NCBI GenBank assembly: GCA_020724525.1
Contig: DYGU01000004.1
Coordinates: forward strand, 35,100-99,099
Source: Dehalococcoides mccartyi
GTDB lineage: Bacteria; Chloroflexota; Dehalococcoidia; GIF9; DYGU01
DNA: 64,000 nt
Direction of reading: 5' to 3'
How positions within the stretch are numbered: position 1 is the stretch's first letter; each line of letters opens with the position of its first letter. The notes beneath the pieces are model-generated. The model was not told where the DNA came from, searched no databases, and worked only from the letters and a program-made list of their open reading frames with translations. Below, in pieces: positions 1,749-9,756 of this stretch. A program made the position numbers and the translations under genes.

Positions 1749-2966
1749 TTAAACCTTCTCCAGCTCAAAAGCTTTGTGTATCGCCCTAAGGGCGTCTTTT
1801 ACCCTATCCTCAGCTATAATACAGGTAATTCGGATTTCTGAAGTAGTAATCAACTGTATATTGATACCTTCTTCATAAAGGGCACGGAACATCTTAGCCG
1901 CATAACCAGGGGTATTTTGCATACCAGTGCCTATGATACTAACTTTGGCTAAAGCAGCATCGCTAACACATTCTTTAGCCCCGATGAACCTGGCTACCGG
2001 CTCTACTATGGACATAGCTTTGTTCAAGTCACTGCGGGCAACAGTAAAAGTCAGGTCAGTGATATTGTTAATACTGGCATTTTGGACAATAGTGTCCACA
2101 TTTATGTTAACCTGGGCTAAGGGCTCAAAAAGAGCTGCCGCAATACCGGGACGGTCAGGAACCCCGACCACAGTGATTTTAGCCACATTGACATCGTGAG
2201 CAATACCTCGGACTTTATTCCTTACTTCCATAGAAACCCCTCCATGAATCAGAGTGCCTGGTGCTTTACTGAAACTGGTGGCTACCAGTATTGGAATATT
2301 ATACACCTCACCCAACTCCATGGCTCGAGGATGGATCACCTTAGCCCCGTAGGTAGCTAATTCCAACATCTCCTCATAGCCAATCTCGGACAACTTCTGG
2401 GCTTCAGGGACAAGACGAGGGTCAGCCGTGAAAACCCCTTCCACATCGGTGTAAATTTCACAGACCTTGGCTTTCAAAGCCGCAGCCAAAGCCACCGCTG
2501 TAGTATCTGAGCCACCCCGCCCCAAGGTAGTGATATCCATATCCCGGCTTATACCCTGAAATCCAGCCACAATAACTATATTACCTTGCTCCAGCTCTCT
2601 AACAATCCGTTTTGGGGCAACCTCTAAAATGCGTGCCCGACTGTAACTGCTATCAGTGTGAATACCAGCTTGAACCCCGCTCAGGCTTATCGCTTTATAG
2701 CCTAACTCATTAAGAGCCATACTTAATAGAGTGCTGGACACAATTTCCCCGGTTGATAGCAACACATCCAGCTCCCGCTCATCAGGTTGCCGCACTATCT
2801 GGCGCGCCAGGGCAATTAGTTCATCAGTAGTATCACCCATGGCTGAGACAACCACCACTACCCGGTTACCCTTGTCTTTAGTCTCAGCCACCCGCCTGGC
2901 TACATTCTTGATTTTTTCGGCATCAGCTACCGAGCTACCACCATATTTCTGGACAATCAGTGGCAT
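1749..2966 (-). CDS. lysC: Aspartate kinase.
   Basis: 405 aa with the kinase N-terminus ([23 protein letters not shown]) and tandem C-terminal ACT domains. Confidence 0.9.
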
Positions 2967-2984
2967 TTCTCTTCTCGTTCCTTT

Positions 2985-3413
2985 TTACTCATCCCCCAAA
3001 CAACGAGTAAGAATGGTACGGACTTCATTTTGGTCTGCATAACTGATGCAGCTAAAAATTCGCTTGCCATATTCCTGCTCCGGATTAGGAATGCCAGCAC
3101 GTTCACTCAAGCTTATAAGGTCTTGACGCCGGGCTCCCACAAAAAGAAGAACCGTATCTCCCCCTTGGGCTATCTCACTCTCGACTCGCTGCCATCTGTC
3201 CAGGACTTTTCTTTGATGACTTTTTTGTTGCTGGAAAGTTACTTCAACTTCTACAAAAGCCCTGCGGTTATTTCGCGGGTTCAACAAAATCATATCTGGT
3301 TCCCCCGGGCGATTTTCACGATTTAAGAATTCTATATTATAGCCCAACTCTTCCGCCAACAAAGCTATTTGGATTAGATAGGCTCCATGGCGCTCATCCG
3401 AGGTTACTTCCAT
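2985..3413 (-). CDS. Hypothetical protein. A possible PD-(D/E)xK-like nuclease partner of the adjacent methyltransferase is unverified.
   Basis: The 142 aa ORF lies 15 bp downstream of the methyltransferase on the same strand. It contains GEPD...FVEVEV, reminiscent of a nuclease core but without a clear catalytic Lys. Its GC content resembles the host, unlike the methyltransferase. Confidence 0.4.
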   Translation of the reverse strand: MEVTSDERHGAYLIQIALLAEELGYNIEFLNRENRPGEPDMILLNPRNNRRAFVEVEVTFQQQKSHQRKVLDRWQRVESEIAQGGDTVLLFVGARRQDLISLSERAGIPNPEQEYGKRIFSCISYADQNEVRTILTRCLGDE

Positions 3414-3428
3414 TTTTGCTCCACCTTC

Positions 3429-4886
3429 TTAATAATTAACTTTAATGAAATCTCTTAGCTCTTTCGGAACTTCGTAAAGTTCGAAAACAAGCTCATTTAT
3501 TTTCTCTTGTTCTTTAGAATAATCATAATGGGGGCTGATTTTTAAGTTATCAACAATGCGCTTGACCAAGGTTTCCATCCACGACTGCATCTCTTTGGGA
3601 GGATACCTGAAGGGTAACGCTCTTATATCCTCTATTTGAAGGCAGTTTGTGGTATTGAGAATTCCTTTTGTTAGGAAATTATAAAGCTTGCTATTTAAGA
3701 GCCCCAAAGCGTACCAAATAGATACCTGACTGTCTTTAACAACAAATCCCATGGCTTTGTTAGTATCCCAAAGGCATCCCGGTGGCATATACCTGGCTGC
3801 TAACCTAGAACTTACGCCGCTTATCACTATGCCTTCCCTAAAAAACAAGTCATTCTTCTTCGGCACGTCATAATGCTTTACTGTGTCAGCACTCCAATCT
3901 ATAGCTTCTTCTATTTCTCGGTAATATTGTTCGTTTCCCCCCTTCTTTAGGTATGGTTGCCATCTGTTATCTTCCAATAAGACTTGTCTTGGGATAACTC
4001 TCCGCCCGTCTTTTTTAAATTTCTCCGACAATATAGTTCCTTCTATAGCAGCTATAAACCTCGCATTATCATGGGTATGCAATCCAATTTGGCCCTCGAT
4101 AACTTCACTAACTGAGGGTAACGAAGAAAAAAGCCTTACTACAAACTTATCGATATTTATAGAAATCGGGTAACCCCTTATTTTTAAGAAAAATTGCTGG
4201 GGTATTCGCTTTACTCTCGAGGGAGTATAATATTCTCTTTCCGTTTTCACTCTATCTATGAAGACAACCTCATGGCTATCATCCCATGGCTTCTTTTCTA
4301 TTACTACGATGCAAGGGTTATTGTTTACCCCCTGCTTTGAGAATAGATTTTTGGGGGCTAATATTATCTCATTAATTTTGAAATTTTTGAGTAAAAACTC
4401 ACGCAACTTCCGATGGTATCCAATAGTAAGAAAGGTATCACTAACAATAAAGCAGAGAATTCCTCCCTCTTTTAGGGAAAGCAAACTTCGATAGATAAAA
4501 AGGCTGTAAGTATCATAGACTCCTATTTGCTTAAACCGCCTTAAAAGTCCCCTTTTATTGGTTCGAATGTAAGTGCTGTGCCTACTTAAATACGGTGGAT
4601 TACCTATTACGCAGTCAAAAAGTTTCTGCGTGAAAACAGGGTCTTCTTCAAGTAAAAAATCAGTAATCTTATGATTAATTCCAAAATCTTGATATATCTT
4701 TTCAAAAGCCAGGTTGATTTCAAGAGCCGTAATTTGTTGGGGGTTTACATTTCTCCTCAAAAGCTCCTTCACAAAAACACCTTCTCCAGCACCAGGCTCC
4801 AAAATACTTTTCCCCACAAGACTTCCCAATTTATCTACCATAAACCTGGCAGTTTCTGGGGGGGTAAATATTTCACCTCTGTTCAT
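3429..4886 (-). CDS. N6-adenine DNA methyltransferase, gamma-class (M.TaqI / Eco57I-like).
   Basis: N-terminal FTPPETARFMVDKL and SAM motif ILEPGAGEGVF; catalytic motif IV is VIGNPPY. The gene is markedly AT-rich (about 35% GC) relative to its neighbours. Confidence 0.85.
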   Translation of the reverse strand: MNRGEIFTPPETARFMVDKLGSLVGKSILEPGAGEGVFVKELLRRNVNPQQITALEINLAFEKIYQDFGINHKITDFLLEEDPVFTQKLFDCVIGNPPYLSRHSTYIRTNKRGLLRRFKQIGVYDTYSLFIYRSLLSLKEGGILCFIVSDTFLTIGYHRKLREFLLKNFKINEIILAPKNLFSKQGVNNNPCIVVIEKKPWDDSHEVVFIDRVKTEREYYTPSRVKRIPQQFFLKIRGYPISINIDKFVVRLFSSLPSVSEVIEGQIGLHTHDNARFIAAIEGTILSEKFKKDGRRVIPRQVLLEDNRWQPYLKKGGNEQYYREIEEAIDWSADTVKHYDVPKKNDLFFREGIVISGVSSRLAARYMPPGCLWDTNKAMGFVVKDSQVSIWYALGLLNSKLYNFLTKGILNTTNCLQIEDIRALPFRYPPKEMQSWMETLVKRIVDNLKISPHYDYSKEQEKINELVFELYEVPKELRDFIKVNY

Positions 4887-5023
4887 TTCCTAATTCTCTT
4901 CGCTTATACAAGCCTCTTTGTATTCGCCTTTAAATTATTTTACGCTACCTGATGGGCTTTAACAAAGCAATTTTAAGGGATATTTTTAAACCTTTGTTGT
5001 TATTCCACCTCTGATAGCGACAC

Positions 5024-6217
5024 TCACATTATCCAGCCTATTAATTTACTCATAATACTACACCCTTCCACTACAAAAACGCCAGTCCTTTTAGCTTCAA
5101 CTTCGGTAAACCTCTCAGCCCCATTGGGGCTAAACCCCTCTCCCCAGAGTAGAAACGGGACCGGGGCATCGGTGTGGGTCTGAACCTTAATTGGCGTGGA
5201 GTGGTCAGGCATAATGAGCACCCTTAAGTTATCTCCTTGCCAGGAGCGGAGACGACTTACCATCTCCTGGTCAATTCTGTAGATGGTTTCTATTTTGTCA
5301 TCAACAGAACCGGAATGCCCAGCTTCATCTGGAGCTTCCACGTGGACAACCACTAAATCCCGTTCCTTAAGAGCTTCCAGGGCACCCGTTACCTGAGCCA
5401 CATAATCATTGTCCAGACCGTCAGTCACCCCCGGGATATCCAGTACTTCCATTCCCATCATCCGGGCTAAACCGCGGAGAAGGTCAACCCCGGAGGTCAT
5501 AGCCGCCTTTAGTCCATAAACTTGCTTGAAAGGCAGCATATCAGGTATTTTACCACTGCCCCAGAAAAGCCAGACCATAGTTGCCGGAATATCATCCCGA
5601 GCTTTTCGGCTTAAATTCACCGGATGATCTTTAAGCACAGCTTTAGAGCGCTCCATAATCTCTCGCAATAGCTCACTTCCCTTGCCTTTAGGTAAAAATT
5701 CAGCAATAGATTTCCCGGAAATATCATGAGGGGGGGTACAAATAGCCTGAAGGGTTTCTTCTCGCCCTTTTATCTTGCATATATGTCTGTAACTGACACC
5801 AGGATAAAAATGAATGTTTTCATCAGCCAAGCTTTCATTCAAGGCAGCAATCAGAGCCTGAGCCTCCTCAGTACTGATATAACCTGAGCTGTAACTCGAC
5901 ATTTTGCCATCCTGAACCGCTACCAGATTGCAGCGAAAAACCACTTCGCCATCCTCAATAGGAATGCCCATACTTTTAGCCTCAATAGCAGCCCTACCCC
6001 GGTAATAGACTTTCGGGTCATACCCCAGCACCGACATACAGGCACAGGCACTGCTCGGCTCCATTCCCTCGGGCACTGTCCTGACCAGACCAACCACCCC
6101 TTCTTTAGCCAAAGCATCCAGATTTGGTGTCGCAGCTAATTCGAGACAAGTCTTATCCCCCCGGTCAGGCAAAGGTAGACCAGAGGCTCCATCCATTATC
6201 AGAATGCAGTATTTCAC
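5024..6217 (-). CDS. apgM: Cofactor-independent phosphoglycerate mutase, archaeal-type (ApgM family).
   Basis: 397 aa with N-terminal ILIMDGASGLP...TPNLDALAKEG and a metal-binding core (MPDHSTP, VHVEAPDEAGH). Confidence 0.8.
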   Translation of the reverse strand: MKYCILIMDGASGLPLPDRGDKTCLELAATPNLDALAKEGVVGLVRTVPEGMEPSSACACMSVLGYDPKVYYRGRAAIEAKSMGIPIEDGEVVFRCNLVAVQDGKMSSYSSGYISTEEAQALIAALNESLADENIHFYPGVSYRHICKIKGREETLQAICTPPHDISGKSIAEFLPKGKGSELLREIMERSKAVLKDHPVNLSRKARDDIPATMVWLFWGSGKIPDMLPFKQVYGLKAAMTSGVDLLRGLARMMGMEVLDIPGVTDGLDNDYVAQVTGALEALKERDLVVVHVEAPDEAGHSGSVDDKIETIYRIDQEMVSRLRSWQGDNLRVLIMPDHSTPIKVQTHTDAPVPFLLWGEGFSPNGAERFTEVEAKRTGVFVVEGCSIMSKLIGWIM

Positions 6218-8400: not shown

Positions 8401-9756
8401 TTGAGGTCGGCACAAGAAATCTGGGAAACAGCCCTCGGGCAACTCCAAGTTCAAATCAGCAAACCAAATTTTGATACTTGGCTTAAAGATACTATCGGTT
8501 TGAATTACCACAATAACTACTTCACCATCGGCGTCCCTAATGCCTTTGTCGGCGAATGGCTTAATAACCGCTGGCGTTCTTTAATCACTAAGACATTAGT
8601 CGGAATTATAGATAAAGATACCGAAATTCAGTTTTCGGTAAATACCAGCAACCTATGTAAAACTCCATACACTTCTATCCTGCAAGCCGATGGTGGGCTT
8701 AGCTCCCGTGCCATATCACAAGCACTTTCTCCACCAAGACTTAATCCAAAATATACGTTCAATACCTTTGTCGTCGGCAATTGTAACCGGTTTGCTTACT
8801 CGGCTGCTTTACAGGTAGCCGAAAAGATGCCCGAGGAGTACAATCCGCTATTTATTTATAGCAGTACTGGTCTCGGCAAAACCCATTTATTGCACGCTAT
8901 CGGACATATAACCATGAATAATGGGCTAAGAACTCTCTACCTTACTGCTGAACAATTCACCAATGAGTTCGTAAAGTCTCTTAAGGAAGGAAAAAATGGG
9001 AGCTTCCGGAGCAAATTTAGAGCTGTCCAGGTATTACTCATGGACGATATCCACTTTTTCAACGGCAAAGGGCAAATCCAGGAATGTTTCCTCCACGTCT
9101 TTAATGAACTTTATCATGCTGACACACAAATTGTTCTTACCAGTGACCGGTCGCCTAAAGCAATAGCTCTCCTTAATAATAAACTACGGTCAAGATTTGA
9201 GTGGGGGCTGGTAACTGTTATTCAGTCACCAGAAATAGATACGCGCTTAGCCATCATTAGAGCCAAGGCTGAAGAAAGAGGGCTAAAAGTGCCACCCGAA
9301 GTTTTAAAGTTTTTAGCTGAAAAATGCCAGGGAAACATCAGAGAGCTGGAAGGAGTCCTAAATCGTGTTGTCGCCTATGCCCAAGTGCATAATACAAGTC
9401 TCAACCTTTGCTTAGCTGCCGAAGCCCTGGCTAAAATAACCACAGAAACTCAAAATGTAATAACTCCGCCAAAACACATAATACAGCTTGTAGCTCGTTA
9501 CTTTGGCTTAACTCCAGAGCTACTAAGGGGAAGAAAAAGAGACCCGAAGACCAGTCTGGCTCGCCAGATTGCCATTTACCTCCTCCGAGAAGAAAGCTGC
9601 TGCACCCTGTCTCAAATAAGCCGTGAATTTGGCAGCCGAGACCATTCCACAATTTTCTACAGCCATTTCAAAATAAAGGAGAGACTGAAAACTGAGCCGA
9701 AACTTCGCAGCCAAATAGCAGAAATACTCCGGGCACTCCAGTTCACTCAAGAATAG
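8401..9756 (+). CDS. dnaA: Chromosomal replication initiator protein DnaA (TTG start).
   Basis: 451 aa: N-terminus IWETALGQLQVQISKPNFDTWLKDT, AAA+ Walker A GLGKTHLLHAIG, Walker B LLMDDIHF, and the C-terminal DnaA DNA-binding domain. Confidence 0.95.
   Translation: MRSAQEIWETALGQLQVQISKPNFDTWLKDTIGLNYHNNYFTIGVPNAFVGEWLNNRWRSLITKTLVGIIDKDTEIQFSVNTSNLCKTPYTSILQADGGLSSRAISQALSPPRLNPKYTFNTFVVGNCNRFAYSAALQVAEKMPEEYNPLFIYSSTGLGKTHLLHAIGHITMNNGLRTLYLTAEQFTNEFVKSLKEGKNGSFRSKFRAVQVLLMDDIHFFNGKGQIQECFLHVFNELYHADTQIVLTSDRSPKAIALLNNKLRSRFEWGLVTVIQSPEIDTRLAIIRAKAEERGLKVPPEVLKFLAEKCQGNIRELEGVLNRVVAYAQVHNTSLNLCLAAEALAKITTETQNVITPPKHIIQLVARYFGLTPELLRGRKRDPKTSLARQIAIYLLREESCCTLSQISREFGSRDHSTIFYSHFKIKERLKTEPKLRSQIAEILRALQFTQE

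Follow-up and report, generated by a model that had tools for sequence, protein, structure and literature searches.

Does a small open reading frame (ORF) lying directly downstream of a DNA methyltransferase (MTase) gene encode the endonuclease of a restriction-modification (R-M) system, or is it a regulator, a repair enzyme or simply a neighbor? This question was raised by a locus in a 64-kb stretch of DNA (hereafter, the window) from an uncultured member of the Dehalococcoidia (Chloroflexota), the nearest species representative of which is at 88% LysC identity. A first-pass annotation of the window had noted two co-oriented ORFs of 485 and 142 amino acids (aa) between lysC and apgM, with the motifs FTPPE and VIGNPPY in the former and GEPD...EVEV in the latter. 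These coordinates and motifs were confirmed, the MTase gene being located at 3429..4886 and the gene for the 142-aa protein, considered here from its predicted fold to be a minimal PD-(D/E)xK-fold nuclease and putative restriction endonuclease (REase), at 2985..3413, both on the minus strand. The evidence presented below makes it probable, if by no means certain, that segment 2967-5023 represents a Type II R-M module of two genes, acquired horizontally, in which the 142-aa protein is the endonuclease of a new, very small family.

Predicted fold and active site of the 142-aa protein

No Pfam gathering threshold was reached by the 142-aa protein and no match to it was found in NCBIfam, PADLOC or PHROG. 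The sole sequence-level hint was a match to Pfam VRR-NUC (PF08774) of 19.9 bits (E = 8e-4), which is below the 23.8-bit cut-off; matches to this model, all sub-threshold, were noted for 4 of 13 family members. A sequence search of the PDB with the nuclease profile returned noise only, and no public database names were found for the 142-aa protein, its homologue P0008, the fusion protein P0036 (see below) or the MTase of the window. Members of the family were few. From 5.8 billion proteins, 9 clusters at the 90% identity level were obtained, and 1.84 billion proteins searched in full with an HMMER profile yielded 6 representative clusters, each of stand-alone proteins 79-152 aa in length; no relatives were found in viral-contig, phage and plasmid collections.

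Structure prediction and a fold search, as proposed in the first-pass annotation, pointed to a nuclease. Thus, the AlphaFold2 model of the 142-aa protein, built from 9 sequences, had a predicted local distance difference test score of 90.7 and a predicted template modeling score (pTM) of 0.86, with predicted elements in the order helix 5-22, strands 26-30, 41-44 and 50-56, helix 64-82 and strand 86-92, followed by a C-terminal helix-strand-helix. The predicted fold is confidently assigned as the restriction-endonuclease-like α-β-β-β-α-β core of a minimal PD-(D/E)xK nuclease, and matches to VRR-NUC, Hjc, BspD6I, EcoO109I and HindIII were returned by Foldseek from the PDB and viral proteins. A role for this protein as a controller, also suggested at first, is not in keeping with a predicted nuclease fold that carries invariant acidic residues and in which no helix-turn-helix (HTH) was found.

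Residues that were invariant in 22 members of the family, down to approximately 35% identity, include H9, E22, Y25, D40, P46, E55, E57, Q63, K69, R73 and E130 among others. In the model, E22 is located on helix 1, D40 just before β2, E55-x-E57 on β3 and K69 on helix 2. The β3 motif, E55-V-E57, was present in 22 of 22 sequences, with invariant E57 in the position of the lysine. The initial remark that no convincing PD-(D/E)xK lysine is present was therefore correct for β3, but an invariant lysine, K69, is found on the next helix. Conservation across the different MTase partner types described below also extended to numerous polar residues beyond the active site, as would be expected of a protein that makes its own DNA contacts. 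Judged by these comparisons of sequence, the 142-aa protein appears to represent a family of nucleases that is undescribed and extremely rare and in which the active-site layout is a variant one.

Linkage of nuclease and methyltransferase genes

A DNA MTase gene was fused to the nuclease gene, overlapped it, adjoined it or, in L006 only, was located 1.3 kb away from it in 16 of 16 informative loci, contigs L107 and L110 having been left out of this count because they were too short. The nuclease loci represent at least eight unrelated genomic neighborhoods in hosts of 27-58% guanine-plus-cytosine (GC) content, and neither a phage or recombination context nor a mobile-element carrier was found. 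These results contradict the possibility, raised in the first-pass annotation, that the 142-aa ORF is an unrelated neighbor, and the strict linkage to DNA MTases, together with the confidently predicted fold, bears out its other proposal of a minimal nuclease.

Three types of MTase partner were noted. The first, a gamma-class MTase of 485 aa encoded ahead of the nuclease (i.e., M then R), was found in the window, in a sister species (L010), at an rpe-rpmB-fakA site (L012 and L101), in L013 and in L097. The last of these is from an organism of 27% GC; its MTase was 52% identical and its nuclease had diverged along with the MTase. The second, a gamma-class MTase of 411-436 aa, was found in L008 and L103 (both of the 436-aa type) and in L006, and was approximately 30% identical to the 485-aa type over the catalytic domain, with a recognition region that could not be aligned. 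The third, a beta-class N6_N4_Mtase of 275-281 aa (PF01555, 5e-30), was found in L098, L104, L105, L106 and L108, where the genes overlap and are in the order R then M.

In addition, two in-frame fusions of a 485-type MTase, a linker and the nuclease domain were noted, namely P0036 (635 aa, locus L102) and P0035 (630 aa, examined as a protein only). Both surfaced from the list of MTase matches and a metagenome scan, the nuclease profile search having returned stand-alone proteins only. The linkers in P0035 and P0036 are QRKRRNKAE or EKGRYNY and the equivalent of the spacer between the two genes in the window is read through, so that these proteins would appear to represent two independent spacer read-throughs. 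The nuclease domain of P0036 has substitutions (N45H, N48S, Q128P and N129D) where the residues are otherwise invariant, and this fusion may be decaying.

The nuclease tree did not follow partner type. Thus, L103 (gamma-436) was placed with P0035 (gamma-485) and L097 (gamma-485) with L098 (beta), a pattern that fits repeated swapping of the nuclease between three MTase architectures, as might be expected for a self-contained enzyme. Across partner types, members of the nuclease family were approximately 50-60% identical. REases that are similar to this extent are typically isoschizomers, as is the case for EcoRI and RsrI, at 50% (PMC4081073), and the three MTase types are therefore predicted to protect the same site.

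Whereas the MTase was often found alone, as in L014, L015 and L016, the nuclease was never found away from an MTase, and the homologues in MTase-free genomes that the first-pass annotation had considered did not appear. Such an asymmetry is accounted for by the expectation that the nuclease needs a protecting MTase. In L014 (5001-6449) and L015 (5001-6458), the MTase is alone between rpe and rpmB, and no remnant of a nuclease gene was found beside either copy, the gap being occupied by rpmB on the opposite strand. The same MTase family is thus present at rpe-rpmB/fakA both with the nuclease (L012 3-1817 and L101 552-2441) and without it (L014 and L015), a contrast that looks like an R-M module in the course of becoming a domesticated solitary MTase, or else like re-acquisition at the same site.

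The methyltransferase

The 485-aa protein contains FTPPE at residues 7-11 (FTPP, motif X), EPGAGEG (motif I) and VIGNPPY (motif IV). In agreement with its initial description as a TaqI-like, gamma-class N6-adenine MTase, matches above thresholds were noted to Pfam Eco57I (2.8e-21), N6_Mtase (2e-15) and TaqI_C (6.9e-8). Among PADLOC models, the match to MTase_II was full-length (9e-69), compared with 1e-33 for IIG and just 4e-12 for oMTase, so the protein does not group with orphan cell-cycle MTases. Matches in the PDB were to M.TaqI (1e-11, catalytic domain only) and to BrxX/PglX (2e-9, catalytic domain plus target-recognition domain, TRD). The protein is identified on these grounds as a gamma-class N6-adenine MTase composed of a catalytic domain with intact motifs and a TaqI_C-like recognition domain.

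Two other assignments were considered and rejected. The NCBIfam PglX model matched residues 87-447 (8.7e-42) with 143 bits as opposed to the 500-bit cut-off, and PglX was rejected on this score, on length (485 aa as opposed to approximately 1,200 aa) and on the identity of the neighbors, which are apgM and lysC rather than brx genes. Identification as a Type IIG enzyme was rejected because the nuclease is a separate polypeptide that is encoded after the MTase (M then R). More than 400 matches were obtained for the MTase family, most of them without this nuclease. Within so large a family the MTase is unexceptional, and the novelty of the locus lies in its 142-aa partner.

Several relatives of the MTase were noted in passing. 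A large clade (P0046-P0129), at approximately 43-46% identity, was from Asgard archaea (records named Lokiarchaeota, Promethearchaeota and Hermodarchaeota), and the similarity points to transfer of the MTase between domains of life. In L016, the sole Asgard context examined, a 140-aa ORF located 3' of the MTase was rejected as a counterpart of the nuclease, to which it is unrelated, and is HTH-like. Another relative, P0045 (717 aa; 15 contigs), has an N-terminal LexA-like DNA-binding domain and Peptidase_S24 (i.e., a LexA-MTase fusion), and in P0038 (478 aa) a ParB-like nuclease domain (PF02195) replaces the MTase N-terminus.

The inserted segment and its surroundings

Junction loci of related species were collected with lysC as query, a scan of genome contigs with the MTase as query having returned no match. 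Neither the MTase gene nor the 142-aa gene was present (tblastn E <= 1e-5) at the apgM-lysC junction in any of the 80 related-species lysC loci, and the distance from apgM to lysC was 10-60 bp in approximately 75 of these 80 species; in the closest relative (L017), the spacer is 50 bp and contains no module. Because the junction is empty in 80 relatives, with apgM abutting lysC in approximately 75, window 2967-5023 is a lineage-specific insertion, the whole module being 2,057 bp long and extending from the lysC start to the apgM stop. The order apgM-MTase-142-lysC was found only on contigs of the same species and in one sister species, at 84-86% protein identity. These empty sites bear out the proposal in the first-pass annotation that an R-M-type MTase gene was acquired horizontally.

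No direct or inverted repeats and no target duplication were found at the ends of the island, and no integrase was found in the inserted segment. A long target duplication was likewise missing from most of the R-M indels in the catalogue of Furuta et al., and the insertion of bare R-M units between housekeeping genes is well known (PMC2853133). The occurrence of a bare two-gene unit at many different housekeeping sites fits this R-M picture.

Within the segment, the two genes are separated by a 15-bp spacer (3414..3428, minus strand), such that the 142-aa ORF starts 15 bp past the MTase stop, preceded by a strong Shine-Dalgarno sequence (GAAGGTGGAG). The two ORFs are in the same frame, with TAA plus five codons between them (4886-3413 = 1473 = 3 x 491). 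A promoter-like element, TTGTTA-N17-TAAAAT, whose function is proposed from a consensus scan, is located inside the island 5' of the MTase gene (4937..4965, minus strand) and is kept in sister species L010 as TTGTCA-N17-TAAAAT; in the same type of scan, the count of promoter-like sites across the region was not above chance.

The flanking genes are outside the module and on the minus strand, i.e., lysC (aspartate kinase, 1749..2966) downstream and apgM (cofactor-independent phosphoglycerate mutase, 5024..6217) upstream, with mazG, fmt and dnaA (8401-9756) beyond the latter. No terminator-like structure was found in the 18 bp (2967-2984) between the nuclease stop and the lysC start, and lysC may now be co-transcribed from the promoter of the island. 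A few relatives hold other small inserts between apgM and lysC (L036 6517-8000, L080 4080-4872 and L056 7360-8000), that of L036 being 1.5 kb with zinc-ribbon or membrane proteins, and this spacer may be a recurrent landing site.

Base composition, selection and site avoidance

The locus had been described as an AT-rich island, which holds for the MTase gene and the spacer upstream of it (35% GC), to which AT-richness is limited, but not for the 142-aa gene, which at 45.5% GC is at the genome average. Similarly, the MTase gene is the lowest-GC 1,458-bp stretch of the 64 kb, with equally low values in 0.2% of sliding windows, but its GC content is 38.1% rather than the approximately 35% first reported, and the 48-50% context given at that time is in fact 47.5-48.7% for the flanks and 45.6% for the window mean (standard deviation 2.4), approximately three standard deviations above the value for the gene. 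For recognition of the locus as an island, the comparison with related species carries more weight than composition. Where the nuclease is present, MTase genes were of lower GC content than their hosts (38% vs 46% in the window, 38% vs 50% in L012, 32% vs 50% in L008, 36% vs 51% in L006 and 24% vs 32% in L097); solitary MTase copies were near host GC (46-48% vs 50-51%).

In a comparison of the window with the sister species, the ratio of nonsynonymous to synonymous substitution rates (dN/dS) was 0.083 in the nuclease gene, with values of 0.17 in the MTase gene and 0.096 in lysC. Both module genes are under strong purifying selection and are therefore functional.

Certain 4-mer palindromes were strongly depleted in the window, with observed/expected ratios of 0.10 for GGCC, 0.10 for CTAG and 0.21 for GATC, each consistently under-represented in all four quarters, while TCGA was mildly depleted (0.70). 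The module-free closest relative, L017, partly shares this depletion (GGCC 0.04, CTAG 0.26 and GATC 0.40). To judge from the depletion of GGCC, CTAG and GATC, the lineage would appear to have been exposed over a long period to several restriction systems distinct from the present one.

Interpretation of the module

The features of a Type II R-M system found at this locus are an MTase with intact motifs, an adjacent protein with a nuclease fold and conserved putative catalytic residues, and a linkage that is consistent while the MTase can be solitary. An R-M explanation is favored because the nuclease was never found without an MTase, whereas the MTase was often found without the nuclease, and within this explanation we favor a stand-alone, Type IIP-like and probably homodimeric nuclease, a tethered cleavage module being a live minority view. 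In the proposed scheme, the two genes would form one operon, M first and R second, driven by the island's own promoter. The 485-aa enzyme would recognize a short target sequence through its TaqI_C-like domain and methylate adenine (N6) within it, and the 142-aa protein, most likely a homodimer with its own sequence recognition, would act independently of the MTase to cut the same target when unmethylated, methylation thus serving for protection. For catalysis, Mg2+ would be bound through E22, D40, E55 and E57, and K69 of the second core helix would substitute for the canonical β3 lysine.

Several observations weigh against this explanation. The canonical β3 lysine is absent from the 142-aa protein; however, a helix-1 glutamate, the Glu-for-Lys variant motif of BamHI and a lysine moved to the second core helix are all documented in active enzymes (PMC3424549), and its absence need not argue against catalysis. 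A length of 142 aa leaves little structure beyond the catalytic core for the reading of DNA, and the best structural matches include non-specific cleavage modules (the BspD6I small subunit and the FokI domain) as well as structure-specific nucleases (VRR-NUC and Hjc). Restriction-site avoidance gave no signal specific to the module, so no target site was assigned, the depletions noted above being shared by module-free L017. The two independent nuclease-MTase fusions could mean that these proteins form one working unit.

Two individual loci also weigh on this side. In L006 (GCA_054042865.1, JBPKUH010000004.1; 6592-7879), ORFs of 95 and 335 aa are located between the nuclease gene and a convergent MTase gene, with a 59-aa ORF upstream of the MTase, and the 335-aa ORF is restriction-enzyme-like with a PD-(D/E)xK-like GD...VELK motif. 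No significant Pfam, PADLOC or PDB match was found for the 335-aa and 95-aa ORFs, the latter giving a sub-threshold winged-helix match only, and the 335-aa ORF may be a second restriction gene that shares the MTase. Contig L099 (QZGF01000413.1, 1-4395), from the same species, is 99.9% identical to window 4702-2228, beginning at MTase codon 62, so that the MTase is without its first 61 codons while the nuclease ORF is intact. At the junction, near position 1920, the sequence joins an unrelated histidine-kinase gene and the island promoter is lost. This contig may have been assembled as a chimera; alternatively, the rearrangement is real, in which case L099 would represent a strain whose MTase is broken and whose nuclease ORF is intact.

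Of the alternatives, a split or tethered R-M enzyme survives best, although it is considered unlikely. The 142-aa protein would then be a cleavage module without specificity of its own, recruited by or fused to an MTase whose TRD specifies the site, in the manner of Type IIG/IIC enzymes but with the nuclease on the C-terminal side. The natural MTase-linker-nuclease fusions P0035 and P0036, the shared frame of the window ORFs with one stop and five codons between them, the homology of the MTase core to PglX/BrxX and Type IIG enzymes and the very small size of the nuclease, which resembles non-specific cleavage modules, are all consistent with such an arrangement. Swapping of the nuclease between three different MTase architectures, including a compact beta-class enzyme encoded in the order R then M, is hard to square with a docking surface, and the conservation across partner types of polar residues outside the active site argues in the same direction. 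AlphaFold2 models of the P0035 fusion (pTM 0.66, from a shallow alignment) diverged and had a disordered linker, a poorly modeled TRD and no fixed interface, and weigh little on either side. The P0036 fusion, from its altered nuclease domain, is possibly decaying. That the 142-aa protein is more generally a portable plug-in cleavage module, guided by whichever amino-MTase is adjacent or fused to it, is likewise doubtful. If true, R-M systems would include an architecture in which a mini-nuclease is C-terminal or acts in trans, and there would be a natural path by which ordinary Type II MTases are turned into Type IIG-like restriction enzymes.

A role outside restriction also seems improbable. 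The protein would then accompany MTases on some other account, either as a nuclease that is structure-specific or acts in repair, like VRR-NUC/Hjc or Vsr, or as a catalytically dead fold for DNA binding or regulation. The sub-threshold VRR-NUC match, the prominence of VRR-NUC and Hjc among Foldseek's best small-protein matches, the missing canonical lysine, the other candidate REase in L006 and the possible persistence of the nuclease without an intact MTase in L099 would all be in keeping with a role of this kind. Linkage to amino-MTases in every informative locus, however, would be without rationale for a junction resolvase, and the VRR-NUC threshold was not reached. Vsr-type repair accompanies C5-cytosine MTases, not N6A or N4C enzymes, and all partners noted here were amino-MTases (N6_Mtase/Eco57I or N6_N4_Mtase). 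The invariant acidic triad and K69, together with a dN/dS of 0.08, argue for what is probably an active enzyme, and neither an HTH nor a phage or recombination context was found.

The remaining alternative, a solitary epigenetic MTase near oriC with a functionally unconnected ORF beside it, as the first-pass annotation had also entertained, is highly improbable and already contradicted by the co-occurrence data, since lone family copies of near-host GC content at rpe-MTase-rpmB in other Dehalococcoidia (L014 and L015) and a distance of 3.5 kb from dnaA to the MTase are set against absence of the MTase from this site in 80 relatives, conservation of the MTase-nuclease pair in the sister species and other genomes, a tight operon with a Shine-Dalgarno sequence and a gamma-class MTase that is unlike Dam (alpha) or CcrM (beta) and matches MTase_II far better than oMTase.

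Should the 142-aa protein prove to be active as a restriction enzyme, as in the favored explanation, it would found a new family among the smallest PD-(D/E)xK REases, with an unusual E...D...ExE...K layout and a compact scaffold on which to study or engineer minimal sequence-specific DNA recognition. R-M evolution is unusually visible in this family, in which one nuclease is associated with three MTase architectures and two fusions and has been lost, or was never gained, where the MTase persists alone and adapted to its host. In the bacterium studied here, the module would represent recent acquisition of defense genes approximately 3.5 kb from dnaA and directly upstream of lysC, to whose transcription it may contribute.

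Comparison with known systems

Like classical Type IIP R-M systems, the module has separate M and R genes in one operon and is a mobile unit between housekeeping genes. Small Type IIP endonucleases of the PD-(D/E)xK group include PvuII and BamHI, which are homodimeric, PvuII being about 157 aa in length; to our knowledge, 142 aa is below the size of the small PD-(D/E)xK REases. The 142-aa protein resembles these enzymes in its predicted α-β3-α-β core with D on β2 and E on β3, and resembles BamHI in having E-x-E on β3, i.e., the Glu-for-Lys variant (PMC3424549). Unlike Type IIP REases, it is without detectable sequence relation to any characterized REase and has K69 on the second helix.

With VRR-NUC (PF08774) and archaeal Hjc, the 142-aa protein shares a minimal stand-alone PD-(D/E)xK domain (approximately 90-125 aa in those families; Foldseek probability 0.96-1.0) that has Glu on helix 1, Asp at β2 and Glu on β3. 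In contrast with them, the lysine of ExK is replaced by Glu and there are approximately 50 additional C-terminal aa (helix, strand, helix), and strict linkage to an MTase is not a known feature of those families.

The MTase has a catalytic domain and target-recognition region that are homologous to those of Type IIG/IIC enzymes (Eco57I, MmeI and BpuSI) and of BREX PglX/BrxX. Unlike Type IIG/IIC enzymes, the MTase and nuclease of the window are separate polypeptides, a single chain being found only in P0035 and P0036, and in these fusions the nuclease is C-terminal, as opposed to N-terminal in MmeI and BpuSI (PMC2582602, PMC3185434). Unlike PglX and Type IIG enzymes, the MTase of the window is without long N-terminal regions, and no brx genes are nearby. 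The heterodimer of the R.BspD6I small subunit and Nt.BspD6I differs in that no large DNA-recognition nuclease subunit is present in the window, and identity is approximately 14%. The kind of system, Type II R-M, is already known; what is new is the nuclease family, in which the active site is a variant one, MTase partners are interchangeable and fusions occur naturally.

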